Shown here: positions 9,501 to 64,000 of the stretch, piece after piece
Layout of the letters: the number at the start of each line of letters is the position of its first letter
How positions within the stretch are numbered: the first letter of the stretch is position 1
Source of the DNA: Candidatus Peregrinibacteria bacterium
GTDB lineage: Bacteria; Patescibacteriota; Gracilibacteria; UBA1369
Assembly (NCBI GenBank): GCA_003153355.1
Contig: PLYH01000001.1
Span: 76,294 to 140,293 of the forward strand
Direction: 5' to 3'
Length of the DNA stretch: 64,000 bases
Notes under the pieces: model-generated
Told to the model about the DNA's origin: nothing
Databases searched by the model: none
What the model saw: only the letters and a program-made list of their open reading frames with translations
Translations under genes and position numbers: made by a program

Positions 9501-10929
9501 GATCGACGGCAAAGTCGTCAAATACACCCTCACCTTTACTCCGACGAACGACAAAACCGATGCAACTATCACCGACCCGATGAACAGCGGAAAAATCCAA
9601 GGCTACATCAATGGATCATCAACAACCGGAGGCGACATTAAATATGACGACACATTCTTGATCAACGGCGTGGTTCAATGTCCTGCCAGTGGACCGGCCA
9701 CCGACTGTTACACTCTTACAGGAGATCAAAATACCGTATTGCCGATCATCCAATTATCAAGCCTCAATGCCGGACAAGTCGTCACGGTAACTTACCAGGG
9801 CATTGTTGAAAACAGTTCAATCAGCGACAATAGTTGTTTGACCGGCAGTATTTGTGAAGAAAAATATACGAACATTGCTACTGCAAACTACGCCGTACCT
9901 TCAATGACTCCGGGAACATTAAGCGCATCGGCAGCCGTCCAAAGTTTCTGCCAGTATATCTTGACCCGCGCTTCCGGCGACATTTATCTTGAAACCAGCC
10001 TGCAGTACGGACAAGACATTTCGGTCTGCTCACAATACAAAAACAGCACCGGTCTGATCATCACTCCGGGCGCGCCTCCTGAACAAACCGCGCCAAGTAC
10101 AGGTGCAGCAGCTTCCCTGAACGTCGGTCACGAAATCTGCAACCTCGACAAATTCGCCGTGAACTTAACAACCCAAACGGGTAAGACGGAAACCCTCTAT
10201 GGCTCACAGGTTGCTTCAAACCTTTCCAGTGAAATCTGTGAAGTCAGACTCCGCCCAGGCCAGGATTGGGGCAAGAGCCAGATCGCTTCCAGCATTGAAG
10301 AAAACAAAACCCGCGTCGCCCGCTGGACTCCGAATTTGACTGCAGGAATGACCATCCAAAGTTTGAACGATCTTCCGCAAACATCAACCGGCGTCTACCA
10401 CATAAAAGGAAATCTTACGATTGATCCTTCACAGGCTGTTCCAGATTCAATCACCAATGCTTTCATTTCCGACGGTGACGGCGCAAAAACCTTCATCGTA
10501 GAAAACGGCGACCTGAATATTAACAGCAACATCAACTACGGCCCTTGCAAAAATCCGAGCGGCGTTTGCACCGTACGCGATACGGCTTCACTGGCTTTCA
10601 TCGTCTTAAACGGAAACATTAATATAAGTCCTAAAGTCACGCAGATGTCCGGCGTCTACTTTGTCCAGCAGGGTAAAGATACCAATGGAAATCTTGTCGA
10701 CAACGGCAAACTCGTTTCAACCGGTGAAGCAAACACTTATGTTCCTTTGACGGTTTTCGGATCGATCTACGGCGACATTCAGGATCTGTTGAGTCACCGC
10801 AAATTCTCCGGCGATCCGGCGTCCAACGGCGGTTCAATCGTCATCCGCTTTGATGAACGCATCATCCTCAACACACCTCCTGGATTACAGGACATTCTCC
10901 AGTTGAGCGAAAACCAGGTGGCCCAATAA
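6568..10929 (+). CDS. 1453-aa secreted Cys/Thr/Pro-rich surface protein with repeated Ig-like modules and C-terminal beta-rich domain
   Basis: Signal peptide MKNKNLTIWLVALTALVELLVAPLPVSA; repeated Cys-bounded modules separated by PPP linkers; C-terminal GDLNINSNI...RFDERIILNTPPGL. Confidence 0.9.
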   Translation: MKNKNLTIWLVALTALVELLVAPLPVSADYHPVSRQACDLGIFPFDPAGTKFYGSAADNYINGRPSEFPGGTITDAICNIAIGGHLTIPTVTPYTTQSYNPQPVTDTGDIPLKSGSQNTYVPIGLHQHNYYNDSAEETSGQQYFYKSLISKFEIDFAPDVASNIDLSKITCITDVPAGFSADDLSADGVANCNGYAPHLWGGTEVRNSASGVVWTFGENDPSSKPRIFGYNPDLDSLIGFNSKPDANRNFFAYVQLPTREDVPADLWSSSTSSKVLLRDYAIKRTTNMSYLNDDNYCSVPKDYDTHWCSMDWKRPAQFQTGTPYGSSTANYYWSPIGSTGVVWRKSAPTPEKCTSFTLTPLTLTNPGQTTLTGHITTDKGLSHNATITWTQSGGTLDTYPTQSAVTNADIINKFTIPNPGNDANVTAEVTAINDGVDLGTCAGSKQTAKTPPPTCTGLTISPTGPFVESDLPQTINVSSATTGGLNLDYKWTSTAPSKFTYDGNSGTYYDTDTSTTLNYTLPTISAPQTITVTAVDKSNHATEFAGTCQANIKITVPPPFCYDVVPNSTTLSNTGSDIFSAKVNYSDGIDRNTTVTWTPTNLNLTPPTSPETKTSATNFVKVTNPVVSGNPVSLQMQVTGVPAGVILPPGGDCATGKTASSGGGNMCQNLNSGYLGTTISGGSSQLLNPNPTNVSSPNPSQVSWTVSGSATLSPNPANNVACYDYLGPDLSNTSFTTIVGCSYFYKTSSVQGTSGSVSMSAVPNLGSVAACNQTITFNNPITPPGGGSCTGLSWSQVGGQICVSPIPSGSFSGSYQWTIGSTTFNDGTCQTVPPNTSVNVQAIGAPACQVNIPPQPPQNNQCTMGPPSYNNGELCLTNVQNYVGPFTWQIGSGAPFSNGLCQPVPLNTPVTVTGPTPACSINNYTPPVPPSPPTFTKTVEIVNLPGAKPISGETGVKSGFNNPLTLVPSNINGGKTGTIDGKVVKYTLTFTPTNDKTDATITDPMNSGKIQGYINGSSTTGGDIKYDDTFLINGVVQCPASGPATDCYTLTGDQNTVLPIIQLSSLNAGQVVTVTYQGIVENSSISDNSCLTGSICEEKYTNIATANYAVPSMTPGTLSASAAVQSFCQYILTRASGDIYLETSLQYGQDISVCSQYKNSTGLIITPGAPPEQTAPSTGAAASLNVGHEICNLDKFAVNLTTQTGKTETLYGSQVASNLSSEICEVRLRPGQDWGKSQIASSIEENKTRVARWTPNLTAGMTIQSLNDLPQTSTGVYHIKGNLTIDPSQAVPDSITNAFISDGDGAKTFIVENGDLNINSNINYGPCKNPSGVCTVRDTASLAFIVLNGNINISPKVTQMSGVYFVQQGKDTNGNLVDNGKLVSTGEANTYVPLTVFGSIYGDIQDLLSHRKFSGDPASNGGSIVIRFDERIILNTPPGLQDILQLSENQVAQ

Positions 10930-10955
10930 AACCTTCCACAAAAACATGATATAAG

Positions 10956-10984
10956 AAAACCCCTCCTTACAAAGAGGGGTTTTT
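10956..10984 (+). terminator. Intrinsic terminator after surface-protein operon
   Basis: AAAACCCCTC-8nt-GAGGGGTTTT followed by T-rich sequence. Confidence 0.8.
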
Positions 10985-11094
10985 GTTTATGTTCTGTCAT
11001 ATCTAGCCATGTCCGTCAAATATGGACGCGCACACAAACTTCCTGCTAGAGTAAGATCTCAAAAGTGCTATTTCCGCAATATATCACCGACAGC

Positions 11095-12078
11095 ATGCCC
11101 CAAGCCAATCTTCATCTTTTTTACGGCGAAGACACCTACTCCTCCTGGCACAAAAGCCAGTACTGGAAAAAAGAGTTCGAAAAAAAATTCGGCGACATTA
11201 ACGTGCTGATGTTTGATGGTGAAAAATTGACGTACGGCGATTTTATTGAAGCGGTTGATTCAGTCCCCTTCCTGGGCGAAAAAAAACTTGTGATCATCCG
11301 CGATTTTTTGCGCGACGGCAAAGACGACGACCAAAAATCCATAGCGGAAAAACTTCCGGACATCGCGGATTTCAGTCTGGTTGTTTTTCTGGAGCAGGAA
11401 AAACCCGATGCCAGAACAACGCTGTTTAAAACCCTCAAAAAAATAGCGACGCTGCAGGAGTTCGATCCTTTGATCGGACCAAAACTCACGGCATGGATTC
11501 AAACCAGAGTGCAGGAACGCGGCGGCAGGATAGGGATGCGTGAAGCCAACCAGCTGGCAGAAACCGTCGGACCAAACTTGTGGCAGATGACCCAGGAAAT
11601 TGAAAAACTCACACTGTATGCCGAAGGCCAGCCTATCCCAAGCGAAGCGATTGAAAGCATGACGAGCCCGAATCTTTCCACGTCAATTTTCAAACTCACG
11701 GACTATCTTGGACAAAAAAACGCCAAAGCTGCTCTTAAAACCTTGGATGTTCTTTTGGAAAGCGGCGAAGAGATCGTCAAAAGCATGTTCATGATCGTGA
11801 GGCATTTCAGAATTTTGATTCAGGTGCGGGCATGTATGGAACAAAAAATGGAAAAAACCGCCATCAACCAAAAACTGAAAGAACACCCTTTTGTGATTAT
11901 GACGGCCATGGGCCAGAGTAAAAATTTCAAAAGCGCGATGCTGGCGAAAACCTACGGCAAACTCCTGGCGATCGATACGAACATGAAAAGCGGCAAAATC
12001 CACATGACCGCAGGCGACAACACTGAACTGCGCCTGGCCCTGGAAAAACTGATCGTTGAACTGTGCCGGGTTGAATAA
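11095..12078 (+). CDS. holA: DNA polymerase III subunit delta
   Basis: LFYGED start, PFLGEKKLVII, EIEKL, IFKLTD, HPF motifs; start moved to ATG 11095. Confidence 0.92.
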   Translation: MPQANLHLFYGEDTYSSWHKSQYWKKEFEKKFGDINVLMFDGEKLTYGDFIEAVDSVPFLGEKKLVIIRDFLRDGKDDDQKSIAEKLPDIADFSLVVFLEQEKPDARTTLFKTLKKIATLQEFDPLIGPKLTAWIQTRVQERGGRIGMREANQLAETVGPNLWQMTQEIEKLTLYAEGQPIPSEAIESMTSPNLSTSIFKLTDYLGQKNAKAALKTLDVLLESGEEIVKSMFMIVRHFRILIQVRACMEQKMEKTAINQKLKEHPFVIMTAMGQSKNFKSAMLAKTYGKLLAIDTNMKSGKIHMTAGDNTELRLALEKLIVELCRVE

Positions 12079-12083
12079 AACAA

Positions 12084-12113
12084 AAGGAGCCCCGTTTTTC
12101 AACAAGGCTCCTT
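12084..12113. terminator. Probable bidirectional terminator between convergent genes
   Basis: AAGGAGCC...GGCTCCTT inverted repeat with 14-nt loop. Confidence 0.5.
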
Positions 12114-12143
12114 CATTTTATCGTACCTAAACTTCACTAACCT

Positions 12144-14282
12144 TTAAAACTTCCCGAGGGTGTGAAGTTTGTAAATAATTTCTGCAACTTCACGGCGCAA
12201 CGTGTATTGCGTTGGAAACAGATCTGCACCGACGAAGAGGCTGTTATCCATTGAATACTTTGCATACCCGCTGAACCACTGTCCTGCTGCAACGTCAGCA
12301 TAAGACAGACTGCTGTTGCTTGGCATCGGATCGCTCAGGTTGCGGAGCAGCAACGCGAGGAATTCAACGCGGTCTACTGCACGGCCCGGTCTGTAGAAAC
12401 CTGCATCAGCGCCGGACTGGTAACCGGTGATCATGCCGATGCCTTTTCCATCACAGACATATTGGAATGCCCATGATACCGGAGTCACATCCGGGAACGG
12501 ATTAACACTGTGGCAATAATCAGTGGATGCATTAAATTTATTGAAGGTCGTAAGCACAATCTTTGCAACCTGGTCGCGCTGGAGATCGGCATTTGGAGCA
12601 AACGTACCATCCGGATTGCCGGTCATCGCACCCGATCCTTTGACATATGTGAACGCTGCGCAATCAGGATCGGTTGACGGTACATCGGTAAAGCCGTCAC
12701 ATTGGCTGCCTGATGGCGGAGGCGGTGGAGTAACACTGCCCACACTCACAGTTACATTCGTAGATTTTGAATCGGTTCCTCCCGCGTTGGTTGCCGTAAC
12801 TTTAGCGGTATAAACACCGTCGGCAACAACATTGCCGGTGGTGTCTTTTCCATCCCAGGTTGTAAGAATCGAACCAGTGGATTTGCTTTGATTATCAATC
12901 AATCTTTTCATTTCAACGCTGCTTCCGTTCAAAATGGAAACAGTGACATTCGCATTGGCACTGAGGTTGAAAGAAATTGTCGTGGTGTCAGCATTGCCGT
13001 CGCCGTTCGGACTGATCGTTGCCGGAGCAGCGCTCAAACCCGTAATCGATGGAGCAGAAACACTCGCAGCCGCTGCTTCAAATGCACCCGGATCATATTG
13101 GGCGGTGCCGTTACCGTCGCCGTCGAGCGGACGGGCAGTGCCGAAATAATCGTTGGCCACACCACTTTCGGTTGTACCTTTATCGATACAAGTTGAACCG
13201 CTTGCCAGTTTATAACTGTTTGGATCCGTGCCTGATCCGGAAAATTGAGGATCGCAACTTAGGTTATTCCCGCTCATCGCAGGATCGCTGGAGTTGCTGA
13301 AAAGTGCATTGTAATCAAAAACGGACGTATCGCCTCCGTTATGAACAAGTGTGGAATTGCCTACTGTGTAAGCAATAAGATTGTTATCGATCGTGTTGCC
13401 ATTGCCGAGAGCAACGATCGCCGCATTACTTGCGCCCGAATTAATCTGGTTGTGCGCCAGAGTGTTATTCACGAACTGGCAGCTGCCTCCCGGAATAACA
13501 AGAGCGTCAGCGGTATCGCCTAAAATAAAATTATTATAGACGAGCGCACCGTTGCTGCATTTTAAAGAACCGCCTCCACCATTGGAACTGTTGGCATAGT
13601 AAAGATTATTATATGCCGTAACTTTACCGTTATAATTTGAAACAAGGCCGCCGTTCGCGGTATTGCTGTAAAATTTATTTGCGCTTACTTCCGCCGTATT
13701 GGAACCGGTGATGATAATGGCCAATGCAACGGCGCTCGTGGTGATATTATTGTGAATAACATTGTTCGTAACGGAAAAATCAAGAGTGGTAGCACCGTTA
13801 TTCTGAATAAAAATCCCGCCCCCGTTCAGACCTGAGATATCAAACCCGTCCATTTTTCCAGCAACCGAAGTAACATCCAAGAGACCCGCTGCTCCGCCTG
13901 TCTGAATATTTGAAGGTGTTGATGAAGGAGCCTGGGTGGAAAACGCGCTGTTCCATCCGCCGGAAAGATTAAAACTCTTTGAATAAGTAGAGCCATCAAC
14001 ATTCCACGGAAGAGTTTCAGCGGAATAGTTCCCGCCCGCGACCCAAATGTTGTCGTAATCGGAATTCGCCGGAGTTTCCAGATAATTCACGGCGTCGGTA
14101 ATCTTCTGAAATGGATGAGCAAAGCTTCCATCTCCAGCCGGAGCTGCACTGGCGTCAACGTAGACACCGCAGCTGTGGAGCGTATGACAGTTAAGAATAG
14201 GAGGAATAATTGCCGATGCGCTGCTCGCTCCAATTGAAAAGAGCATGAGCGCACTCCCCATGGAGGCGATCAATTTTTTCAT
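12144..14282 (-). CDS. Secreted S-layer-homology protein with parallel beta-helix, choice-of-anchor-Q-like and FlgD Ig-like domains
   Basis: Signal peptide; GDGSFAHPFQKI; Asn-ladder repeats; RPLDGDGNGTAQYDPGAFE; PNGDGNAD...WDGKD...ADGVY; SLH motifs FTDV...GNPDGTFAPN. Confidence 0.85.
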   Translation of the reverse strand: MKKLIASMGSALMLFSIGASSASAIIPPILNCHTLHSCGVYVDASAAPAGDGSFAHPFQKITDAVNYLETPANSDYDNIWVAGGNYSAETLPWNVDGSTYSKSFNLSGGWNSAFSTQAPSSTPSNIQTGGAAGLLDVTSVAGKMDGFDISGLNGGGIFIQNNGATTLDFSVTNNVIHNNITTSAVALAIIITGSNTAEVSANKFYSNTANGGLVSNYNGKVTAYNNLYYANSSNGGGGSLKCSNGALVYNNFILGDTADALVIPGGSCQFVNNTLAHNQINSGASNAAIVALGNGNTIDNNLIAYTVGNSTLVHNGGDTSVFDYNALFSNSSDPAMSGNNLSCDPQFSGSGTDPNSYKLASGSTCIDKGTTESGVANDYFGTARPLDGDGNGTAQYDPGAFEAAAASVSAPSITGLSAAPATISPNGDGNADTTTISFNLSANANVTVSILNGSSVEMKRLIDNQSKSTGSILTTWDGKDTTGNVVADGVYTAKVTATNAGGTDSKSTNVTVSVGSVTPPPPPSGSQCDGFTDVPSTDPDCAAFTYVKGSGAMTGNPDGTFAPNADLQRDQVAKIVLTTFNKFNASTDYCHSVNPFPDVTPVSWAFQYVCDGKGIGMITGYQSGADAGFYRPGRAVDRVEFLALLLRNLSDPMPSNSSLSYADVAAGQWFSGYAKYSMDNSLFVGADLFPTQYTLRREVAEIIYKLHTLGKF

Positions 14283-62321: not shown

Positions 62322-62367
62322 AAATGAGACAAATGAGACACTATAAAAAGGGTTTTAGGTCTTATTT
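62322..62367. repeat. Short direct and inverted repeats in intergenic region
   Basis: AAATGAGAC twice in tandem (62322-62339) plus inverted GTCTTATTT (62359-62367, 1 mismatch). Confidence 0.6.
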
Positions 62368-62438: not shown

Positions 62439-63788
62439 TTATTTTTTGCTGATCAAGTCAGCGCAGGCTTTACGAACCTCAGGTTCAGAGTAAAAATTTG
62501 AAGGCCGTCCATTAGATGATCTCCCTCTTTTAGCTACGGCTCCTATTTTTTTTAGTCGCAAATTAACCGTGATCTTAACCAGATTAAAAAATTTTGCCCA
62601 TGCTCTATGAGTTCCGTAACGGATATTATCTTCCATAAAAAACCCATCTTGATCGGCTTGAGGTAAATCCTTGAGAAGTTCTCCACAAGCTTTACGTACA
62701 TCTGCTTCAGTGTAAAAAGCAACTACCTGACCATCTTGCAGTCTCCCATTGATGGAATTAGCTCCCATCTTTTCAACGCGATTGATAAGCGTAGCCAACT
62801 GAAGATTGAGTGATCTGGCCCAAGCACTGCAATTACCATAGTTGATACTGTTTTTTATAAAAAATCCATCCTCATCAGCTTGAGGTAAATCTTTGAGAAG
62901 TTCAGCGCAGGCTTCGCGGACATCCGCTTCGGAGTAAAAATTGAATTTATGGCCACTGGATAATATTCCTTCGACGGGTTTACATCCGATTCTTTCAACA
63001 TATTTTTGAATCGTTGTTCCTGCAATCCCTAATAATCTTGCCAAAGCGCTCACACAACCAAAACGAACACCCTTTTTTATAAAAAATCCATCCTCATCAG
63101 CTTGAGGTAAACCTTCCAGAAGATTAGCACAGGCTTCTCGGACATCGGCTTCGGAGTAAAAAAATTTACTTACGCGACCAACGGATAATCGCCCATCCAC
63201 TGGTTGTGCGCGAATTTTATCAAGCCGCGTTTGAACAGTCTGACCATCTAAATTCAATAATCTCCCCCATGCATCAGGAACACCAAACCGTTCACCTTTT
63301 TTGACAAAAAAACCATCTTCGTCTGCTTGAGGTAAATTAATGAGATCATCACAGGTTCTACGGACTTCTGTTTCAGAATAAAAATCGTGAAGCTTCCCAT
63401 TATGAAATATTTTTCCTTTCTTTGGCTGAATTTTATTTTTTTCCAAGCGATCACCAATTGCTTTATTATCTAAGTTAAAAATTTTTGCCCAAGCATAACA
63501 GGTTCCAAACCGTATACCGCCTTCAATGAAAAAACCATTTTCATCAGCTTGAGGTAAATGCTTGATGAGAAGATCAGCACATACCCTGCGAACACCAGCT
63601 TCAGCAAAAACAATATCAACTTTATTGCGGACAGTATCATGGATCTTTTTAAACTTTACATTACCATCACTATTTATTCTTTCACGTATGGTGGTCTCTG
63701 AAATCGAAATACCTTCTTTATCACGGAAGTATTTTTCCCATCTCGATGGATTACCATAACGGAATTCTCCTTCCATAAAATAAATCAA
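62439..63788 (-). CDS. Tandem-repeat protein of about six 74-aa MerR-like winged-HTH units
   Basis: LPQAD.DGFF units begin at 63557, 63335, 63110, 62888, 62666 (spacing 222/225/222/222 nt) plus a diverged N-terminal unit; start uncertain (TTG 63788 or ATG 63776). Confidence 0.85.
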   Translation of the reverse strand: MIYFMEGEFRYGNPSRWEKYFRDKEGISISETTIRERINSDGNVKFKKIHDTVRNKVDIVFAEAGVRRVCADLLIKHLPQADENGFFIEGGIRFGTCYAWAKIFNLDNKAIGDRLEKNKIQPKKGKIFHNGKLHDFYSETEVRRTCDDLINLPQADEDGFFVKKGERFGVPDAWGRLLNLDGQTVQTRLDKIRAQPVDGRLSVGRVSKFFYSEADVREACANLLEGLPQADEDGFFIKKGVRFGCVSALARLLGIAGTTIQKYVERIGCKPVEGILSSGHKFNFYSEADVREACAELLKDLPQADEDGFFIKNSINYGNCSAWARSLNLQLATLINRVEKMGANSINGRLQDGQVVAFYTEADVRKACGELLKDLPQADQDGFFMEDNIRYGTHRAWAKFFNLVKITVNLRLKKIGAVAKRGRSSNGRPSNFYSEPEVRKACADLISKK

Positions 63789-64000
63789 TCATCAAAATAT
63801 GCAAAACCATCATCAGCCAATTTAGGAAGATCATCTAGGGTCAGAATATCGCTAAGATCAGACGTTTCCATAAGTTCTACCGAGGATGTTAATGCTTTGG
63901 ATTTAAACCTTTTTAAAATTCGTTTTACCTCATCAAGATCACCGTGACCTCCTTCTCCTGAGCCATCCGCTCTACCGAGAAGCTTGCCAGGCTCATAATC
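63785..64000 (-). CDS. 3' end of a gene extending beyond the window, ending in a partial copy of the downstream repeat
   Basis: Open frame from window edge DYEPGKLLGR...LDDLPKLADDGFAYFDD-stop; TGA overlaps TTG of next ORF. Confidence 0.6.
   Translation of the reverse strand, partial: DYEPGKLLGRADGSGEGGHGDLDEVKRILKRFKSKALTSSVELMETSDLSDILTLDDLPKLADDGFAYFDD

Follow-up and report, generated by a model that had tools for sequence, protein, structure and literature searches.

BldC of Streptomyces is a minimal MerR-type winged helix without a coiled coil or an effector domain. It is a single 68-residue transcription factor that assembles non-covalently, and PMC5859096 describes its protomers binding head-to-tail on 9-bp direct repeats, with up to 11 of them in a crystal filament. 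The excisionases (Pukovnik Xis, TorI, RdfS, Tn916 Xis) are separate small proteins that serve tyrosine recombinases, and PMC11963761 describes them as oligomerizing along DNA. Here we consider a gene at 62439..63788 (minus strand) of a 64,000-nucleotide stretch of Candidatus Peregrinibacteria DNA (contig PLYH01000001.1; the window in what follows). It encodes a chain of tandem winged-helix units, the array protein, and lies directly downstream of a gene for a superfamily 2 (SF2) helicase. We argue, with slightly more belief than doubt, that the array open reading frame (ORF) is the nucleic-acid-binding arm of a two-part SF2 translocase.

The filament geometry of BldC is what a covalent array would fix in place. 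BldC differs in being a single unit, whereas the arrays have 3-13 units per chain and are tied to a helicase. The array unit also has an extra N-terminal strand and an LPQADxDGFF linker that BldC lacks, and the sequence searches found nothing that places it with BldC. The best structural matches to the unit are pSK1 Par and RacA, at a sequence identity of 12-17%. Each is a coiled-coil dimer that serves as a centromere protein or a chromosome anchor, and neither is known to have tandem arrays or a motor partner. The excisionases share the small winged-helix fold with the unit (Z 3.8-5.2), but the conserved partner of the array is an SF2 helicase rather than a recombinase. Classical MerR proteins have a coiled-coil dimerization helix and an effector-binding domain. 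The array protein has neither, and its units end after a short helix 3. The ResIII helicases with C-terminal HA repeats (PF03457) are the closest known architecture, since they combine the same motor family with tandem small domains. Some of them fall in the clade of the window helicase: P0223 is 36% identical to it and has 5 HA stretches (E 5.9e-37), and P0221 is HA-bearing too. The idea that the unit is itself an HA domain was rejected: it has no Pfam HA match, and hhalign, with the unit profile set against 8 HA repeats, gave a probability of 0.1%. The HA domain is all-helical. Type I HsdR and XPB resemble the partner, which is a ResIII/XPB-like motor, and HsdR delegates recognition to a separate exchangeable polypeptide, as the window helicase would. 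Compared with type I restriction, however, the helicase-array pair has no nuclease domain, methyltransferase or HsdS-like fold. The analogy to transcription activator-like effectors (TALEs) and C2H2 zinc-finger arrays that the original prediction drew is a likeness in logic alone, a repeated scaffold with few variable positions. There is no homology, and the array unit (74 aa) is much larger. What appears to be new here is the covalent-array architecture and the conserved split-hairpin junction, while the fold and the motor type are already known. Full-text searches of the Creative Commons papers of PubMed Central and of bioRxiv, which exclude subscription journals, returned no account of the arrays or of the helicase-array pair.

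The array gene and its units are laid out as follows.

62439..63788, minus strand: array gene, 449 aa from a TTG start, exclusively six tandem winged-helix units
63558..63788, minus strand: unit 0 (aa 1-77), diverged, without the LPxAD..GFF linker and strand 1; predicted dock for the helicase tail
63336..63557, minus strand: unit 1 (aa 78-151), placed by its LPQAD anchor and the unit hidden Markov model (HMM)
63111..63335, minus strand: unit 2 (aa 152-226), placed by its LPQAD anchor and the unit HMM
62889..63110, minus strand: unit 3 (aa 227-300), the unit modeled singly
62667..62888, minus strand: unit 4 (aa 301-374), sharing an exact 38-nt start with unit 3
62442..62666, minus strand: unit 5 (aa 375-449), the most basic, net charge +6; the chain stops directly after helix 3

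An ATG at 63774-63776 lies 12 nt inside the TTG start and gives a 445-aa form, P0001 in the protein database. The LPQAD anchors (aa 78, 152, 227, 301 and 375) set unit lengths of 74, 75, 74, 74 and 75 aa. A repeat HMM of the kind originally suggested recognizes all six units of the array protein, at 82-121 bits apiece. The description of five full 74-75-aa repeats plus one diverged unit therefore stands, and the scaffold and variable motifs quoted with it are present in the sequence. Between the five full units protein identity is 40-59% and DNA identity 57-66%; units 3 and 4 are mutual closest relatives (61% protein identity in another comparison). Scaffold columns of the five full units hold 1-2 residue types each, against 3-5 types in helix 2, in its following loop and in the wing, which bears out the claimed contrast between a conserved scaffold and a variable helix 2 and wing.

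Family models do not reach the array protein. It falls below every Pfam cut-off (MerR_1, PF13411, scores 16.8 bits against 21.6 with E 0.0075, and HTH_17, PF12728, is unlisted), no NCBIfam model reaches its cut-off, and a profile of 43 units searched against PDB sequences has a best E of 0.16. This agrees with the original prediction, in which no described family was recognized. Foldseek with the whole 445-residue model returned just meaningless multi-domain matches, so one unit was folded singly. That unit (62892-63110, modeled with 43 aligned units) has a predicted local distance difference test score (pLDDT) of 96.2 and a predicted template modeling score (pTM) of 0.83. Its elements run strand, strand, helix, helix, strand, strand, helix, with an added short helix. 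VIA-align, searched against 48,161 PDB representatives, places the DNA-binding domain of pSK1 Par first (8csh, Z 6.8, root-mean-square deviation 1.9 over 52 residues, model residues 17-73). RacA (5i41) follows at Z 5.8, Pukovnik Xis at 5.2 and BldC at 4.8, and CvkR, SoxR, GlnR, TnrA, TipAL, BmrR, TorI, RdfS and Tn916 Xis lie at Z 3.8-4.7. The list is interspersed with the Dachshund/Ski winged helix (Z 6.2, 5.3) and XPA (Z 5.1-5.5). Foldseek, another of the suggested checks, ranks the BldC-DNA complex 6amk first (E 0.025, probability 0.99), then RacA, Xis and MtaN, with probabilities of 0.94-0.99 for BldC, RacA and Xis. The nearest ESM Atlas clusters are Bacteroidota proteins with multiple HTH_17/MerR_1 domains, a lead only at scores of at most 0.85. 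The two structure searches, the sub-threshold MerR_1 match and the ESM Atlas neighbors agree on the type of fold. We accept unit residues 17-73, as modeled, as a MerR/excisionase-type winged helix at the fold level, which is what was predicted. In the model the first 16 residues, an acidic linker and an extra strand, are an addition to that fold.

The gene upstream of the array and the junction between the two are as follows.

G000:C2:140078-141553 (L027:2079-3554), minus strand: SF2 helicase gene, 491 aa, directly upstream of the array gene
63785..64000, minus strand: 3' end of the helicase gene (last 71 codons and stop), which runs past the window edge
63785..63788, minus strand: TTGA overlap of 4 nt, the helicase stop TGA overlapping the TTG that opens the array frame
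63788..63829, minus strand: helicase C-terminal tail, aa 478-491, LPKLADDGFAYFDD, a copy of the unit linker and strand 1

Pfam finds ResIII (E 5e-18) and Helicase_C (E 4.8e-12) in this protein, both above cut-off. Its best named matches are NCBIfam XPB (E 9e-14), type I HsdR 3h1t (E 1.8e-7) and archaeal XPBII (E 3.6e-6). It misses the NCBIfam equivalog cut-offs by far, with 50.9 bits against 610 for XPB and 36.6 against 550 for EcoAI HsdR. Residues G64, G66, K67, T68, D164, E165, T190, T192, Q369, R370, R373 and R376 are invariant in 43 helicase homologs, and these are motifs I, II, III and VI. Judged by its sequence, the upstream partner is an SF2 helicase of the XPB/HsdR-like kind whose ATPase motifs are intact. 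The TGA/TTG overlap is typical of translationally coupled genes.

Split helicases carry the pattern [LIV]PxADxxGF[IF]Y... in their last 5-25 residues, and P479, D482, G485 and F486 are each retained in at least 90% of 43 aligned split helicases. The array-only proteins are the mirror image. The LPxADxxGF motif is absent from the first unit in 141 of 150 of them, and in 111 of the 150 the first unit opens at profile positions 12-15, typically with M..RYAT, which is strand 2. Since the helicase tails end in strand 1 and the arrays open at strand 2, the gene boundary falls repeatedly in the turn of the first hairpin. The motif is also absent after the last unit in 168 of 169 family proteins, so the arrays do not look built for chaining onto each other. 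One can imagine that the split is instead decay, by a recent frameshift or an assembly error, with the array ORF a pseudogene fragment. Fused forms do exist, and the helicase and array frames differ by one base in this genome. However, the 43 split helicases that share the end motif are only 33-61% identical, the nearest helicase homologs (56-62% identity) are split identically, nearly all array-only proteins open at the same structural point, and all six units here are intact and confidently modeled. We find decay barely credible.

Complex prediction was run with helicase residues 425-491 and the first two units of the array, in three runs with three controls. The interaction prediction score from aligned errors (ipSAE) was 0.70 in each of the 3 runs and at best 0.00 in the 3 controls; 0.70 is reached by 58 of 80 solved complexes and by 2 of 110 mismatched pairs, a calibration that is only rough here because custom alignments were used. 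Contacts coincide between the docking runs to at least 78%, with a partner pLDDT of 57 or higher. Helicase residues 478-481 and 485-491 contact array residues 4-8 (strand 2) and 43-58 (wing), and the confident contacts are 485-491 to 4-8 and 478-481 to 43-48 (the wing strand). The docked tail occupies the place that strand 1 and the linker take in an internal unit.

The roughness of that calibration is one of several points that weigh against our reading. A fit of the helicase tail to unit 0 is predicted, which is less than binding, and the model may simply reproduce the geometry of an internal unit. When one domain is split in two, its parts should pass such a docking test anyway, as that geometry is there for the model to copy. 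If the TTG start is used, the array would have strand-1-like residues of its own, IYFM, that compete with the helicase tail. The model of the whole protein (alignment of 46 family members; mean pLDDT 94.2) has a pTM of 0.62, which makes the units confident and their relative placement less certain. The fold matches are modest too, with every Foldseek E above 0.001 and every VIA-align Z below 8, a range that can reflect merely a common arrangement. Finally, we infer that the helicase acts on DNA rather than RNA solely from its matches to XPB, HsdR and ResIII. In another scenario the units bind protein or RNA, the array being a scaffold that recruits factors to the helicase or an RNA-binding tail. 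The helicase C-domain also weakly matches DEAD-box RNA helicases (E about 2e-4), and the protein-binding MerR-like CbpM (with CbpA, 3ucs) is among the fold matches at Z 4.4. We consider this scenario improbable, since the solved domains that match best are bound to DNA (pSK1 Par, RacA, BldC, Xis), the motor is closest to the double-strand translocases XPB and HsdR, and the unit cores are basic.

The same module is found fused in some relatives and split in others.

G713, fused: helicase and 8 units in one 1087-aa chain
G633 C20, fused: 856 aa, 5 units
G441, fused: 713 aa, 3 units, then another array gene
G000 (the window genome), split: helicase and array in adjacent genes
G633 C3, split: helicase and two arrays
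G664, split: helicase and array adjacent
G575, split: helicase and at least two arrays
G734, split: four or five arrays behind the helicase, another on the opposite strand

Fusions in relatives carry 3-9 units per helicase, and some genomes have 2-5 different array genes behind one helicase. The original prediction was a beads-on-a-string DNA-binding protein. The tandem modules are there, but the fused and split relatives make the array the second half of a helicase-array module rather than a free-standing protein. Among 401 sampled genomes of the class, 11 match the array query and 12 the helicase query (E<=1e-40); eight have both. The unit HMM was applied to the remaining four helicase genomes. 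In three of them (G639, G698, G482) unit-bearing proteins lie directly downstream. The fourth, G417, has a fused form that is open under table 25 alone, and just its first unit scores convincingly (26.7 bits). In 11 of the 12 the helicase is thus tied to one unit or more, in its own chain or in the next protein, a count that is no statistical test because the genomes are related, though they span five family labels (f1, f147, f162, f6, f160). The helicase of G244 C8 carries HA repeats in place of units.

This distribution bears on the possibility that the array acts alone, as a transcription regulator of the island it sits in, and that its adjacency to the helicase is coincidental. The helix-turn-helix fold is typical of regulators and the gene lies within an island with defence genes. 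Against this stand the helicase fusions in many lineages, the unit-bearing protein fused or directly downstream in nearly all helicase genomes of the class sample, the conserved split point and the 4-nt stop/start overlap. We regard coincidence as very improbable.

Several of these loci deserve a description of their own. In G734 (L035, G734:C33:11000-30000, at about 6951-14069) array genes of 363, 374, 334 and 493 aa and an 88-aa fragment follow the helicase. The array gene on the opposite strand is 335 aa, and the locus holds ~24 units in total. A shufflon-like inversion system was considered there and rejected, as no recombinase was found beside the opposite-strand gene. In G417 (L052:1824-3905) there are 12 in-frame TGA codons under table 11, while table 25 gives an open 694-aa helicase with unit-like sequence after it. 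The module is thus also present in a genome where TGA seems to be recoded. G244 (L026:7849-11580) encodes a 1243-aa protein with four units (residues 118-396) followed by an SNF2-related ATPase. This fusion is a second, independent joining of an array to an SF2 motor. In G639 (L048:2874-4046) the protein after the helicase is one unit and then an HA domain (above the Pfam cut-off at E 8e-10). In G482 (L051:1322-3818) there are two successive partners, each with one unit and 300-390 residues without an assigned domain. The sequences of G639 and G482 support the idea that the first unit may serve generally as the adapter by which proteins dock onto the helicase tail. A programmed frameshift, or read-through, that would join both genes was also rejected. 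The array is in frame -1, two stop codons precede the array frame, the relative frames differ between loci, and no common recoding signal turned up.

The family is large and unnamed. A word-indexed search found 48 relatives, all consisting of 3-10 units and every named one "hypothetical"; some are labeled Candidatus Peregrinibacteria or Patescibacteria by their sources. The closest of those relatives has just 42% identity. The profile of 43 units, searched over 1.84 billion representatives (50% identity), finds 923 proteins at E<=1e-3, 471 at <=1e-10 and 293 at <=1e-30. In 169 family proteins examined, copy number is 3-13 units with a mode of 5-7. Helicase fusions among the 169 number 15 by phmmer plus 2 (P0123, P0140) by Pfam ResIII/Helicase_C. 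No nuclease or other effector domain was identified among them, and no domain could be assigned to the extra regions of P0101 and P0038. The survey of copy number and fused effectors that had been proposed thus yields helicase fusions and no other effector. The consensus of 294 units is LPQADE.GFFekdG.RYGTi.aWsr.LgIS..tI..RLk.....gIkGKd..Gri.dFYsEsdVReaCADLL. Among array-only proteins the median isoelectric point (pI) is 9.17 (n=143), with a pI above 8 in 116 of the 143. Mean charge is -1.7 for the linker and +3.7 for the remainder of the unit.

The least conserved columns are 21 and 26 in helix 1; 31, 32, 35 and 36 on one face of helix 2; 40-44 in the loop after helix 2; and 51, 52, 56 and 57 in the wing. 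The per-column check called for by the original prediction puts peak entropy on one helix 2 face, the following loop and the wing tip. The best match of a unit is in another protein rather than its own for 903 of 1095 units, and going by these comparisons the units are old and individual. Two points pull the other way. Helix 1 and helix 3 surface positions are variable too (entropy digits 6-9), and 4 of the 6 units of the array protein have a net charge of only -1 to +1. A rival reading is that the array is a sequence-independent DNA clamp or spacer that gives the motor grip or processivity, with units that hold the backbone or a DNA structure rather than read bases and with the variable positions being unconstrained surface. 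The spread of variation to helices 1 and 3 fits a clamp, as does the free copy number. So does the DNA upstream of the operon, where inspection of L027:3540-3780 showed no obvious repeated motif. Many MerR-like domains contact mostly phosphates. It is hard, however, to square a clamp with the clustering of the highest entropy on the helix 2 face, loop and wing tip, with units that are old and individual, or with 2-5 different arrays behind one helicase. We rate the clamp as rather unlikely, and return to the array as the arm of a translocase.

The proposed mechanism would run as follows. The helicase tail would complete unit 0 by strand complementation, and if it does so the motor and the array would form one complex. 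The basic winged-helix cores would then be aligned head-to-tail on double-stranded DNA, like free BldC or Xis protomers. The spacing would be about one unit per 9-10 bp, or roughly 55-60 bp for the whole six-unit chain. The array would hold or aim the motor, which would pull DNA relative to this anchor. XPB and HsdR pull DNA similarly when held by partners. The variable helix 2 face and wing would give every unit its own contacts. Such unit-specific contacts are favored by the position of the variable columns on the helix 2 face and wing tip, by the individuality of the units and by the several arrays per helicase. The other variable surface positions and the four near-neutral units caution against them. 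One can go further and suppose that a DNA motor without a nuclease takes the arrays, docked by its tail, as exchangeable subunits that set its specificity, with units that read their own subsites of ~9-10 bp. Any partner that opens at strand 2 would snap onto the LPxADxxGF tail of the helicase, which would let one motor be aimed at different long targets by 2-5 arrays, or carry HA repeats. We think this stronger version unlikely.

The original prediction also held that identical DNA at unit borders could allow module shuffling. The first part is true in a restricted sense. All five full units share 11 nt at the unit start, units 1, 3 and 4 have 17 nt in common, and the exact 38-nt start is found only in units 3 and 4; the other pairs have no long stretch in common. 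Tandem Repeats Finder reports no DNA-level array at 62439-63788, which implies that the repeats are old. Columns with identical residues use the same codon 185 times, where 162 are expected from the codon usage of the gene, and the excess is confined to units 3/4 (27 against 18.8) and 2/3 (25 against 20). Synonymous sites between units are close to saturated. With long exact DNA only in units 3/4 and near-saturated codons, border-homology shuffling is possible for one pair at most. We reject recent shuffling or gene conversion as a general feature.

The module sits at one end of an island.

L027:733-14314 (G000:C2:138732-152313): island, 13.7 kb, between recQ and tRNA-Gln(CTG); its first ~1560 bases are at 62439-64000 of the window

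The island contains the array, the helicase, a 308-aa orphan, SIR2, AbiU/AIPR, a type IIG restriction-modification enzyme, a large serine recombinase and a 274-aa orphan. Its GC content is 30-43%, against 46-48% in the flanks. In a genome of the same genus (G584) recQ and tRNA-Gln are ~600 bp apart and the island is missing there; that genome has no match to the array or helicase queries. G584 has another insert of ~12 kb between tRNA-Gln and gmk (L047, G584:C1:884500-899000), with four same-strand ORFs of 1259, 938, 640 and 868 aa. Variable cargo, possibly of the defence type, seems to have a hot spot at this site. Of the 401 genomes of a phylum sample 2 carry the module; the counts are 11 of the 401 in the class sample and 0 of 11 for the other genomes of the same family. 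We class the helicase-array module as accessory and mobile. In the intergenic DNA between the convergent recQ and array genes, 62322-62340 holds 2.1 copies of a 9-bp unit, AAATGAGAC. Its period equals the BldC site length, which is probably chance.

A role in genetic conflict or mobile-element biology is our leading guess, though a doubtful one. G633 C20 also has, close to the module, a serine recombinase 51% identical to that of the island. Apart from it, comparing the flanking ORFs of 13 loci all against all found no shared neighbor. The evidence that counts against a defence role is the following. The neighbors in other relatives are housekeeping genes (ruvA, tgt, folD, uvrB). In PADLOC-DB 2.0 the helicase has just weak partial matches (PbeA 2.2e-9, type IV restriction endonuclease 2.3e-8), and the array gives mad1 alone at E 9e-4. 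The defence reading therefore rests on one island and the sporadic distribution. A phage origin was considered as well and is unsupported: tblastn against 50,697 phage records gave no match, and a pattern scan of IMG/VR gave 7 pattern matches with 0 confirmed. In PHROGs the array weakly matches a family of unknown function (2.2e-7) and the helicase matches generic "DNA helicase" families.

The helicase-array pair thus occurs sporadically in ultra-small bacteria of the candidate phyla radiation (CPR). It belongs to a large unnamed family in which a familiar DNA-binding type of fold is strung into covalent chains of up to 13 modules. The break inside a beta-hairpin at one conserved point suggests plug-and-socket assembly. 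If each unit reads one subsite, this would be a prokaryotic modular DNA-recognition scaffold to set alongside zinc fingers and TALEs, and possibly a re-programmable one. It would also explain the purpose of the long-unexplained "helicase-associated" repeat tails on related motors. Should the reading of subsites prove wrong, the annotation of CPR genomes still gains a useful and well-defined new domain family in the array.

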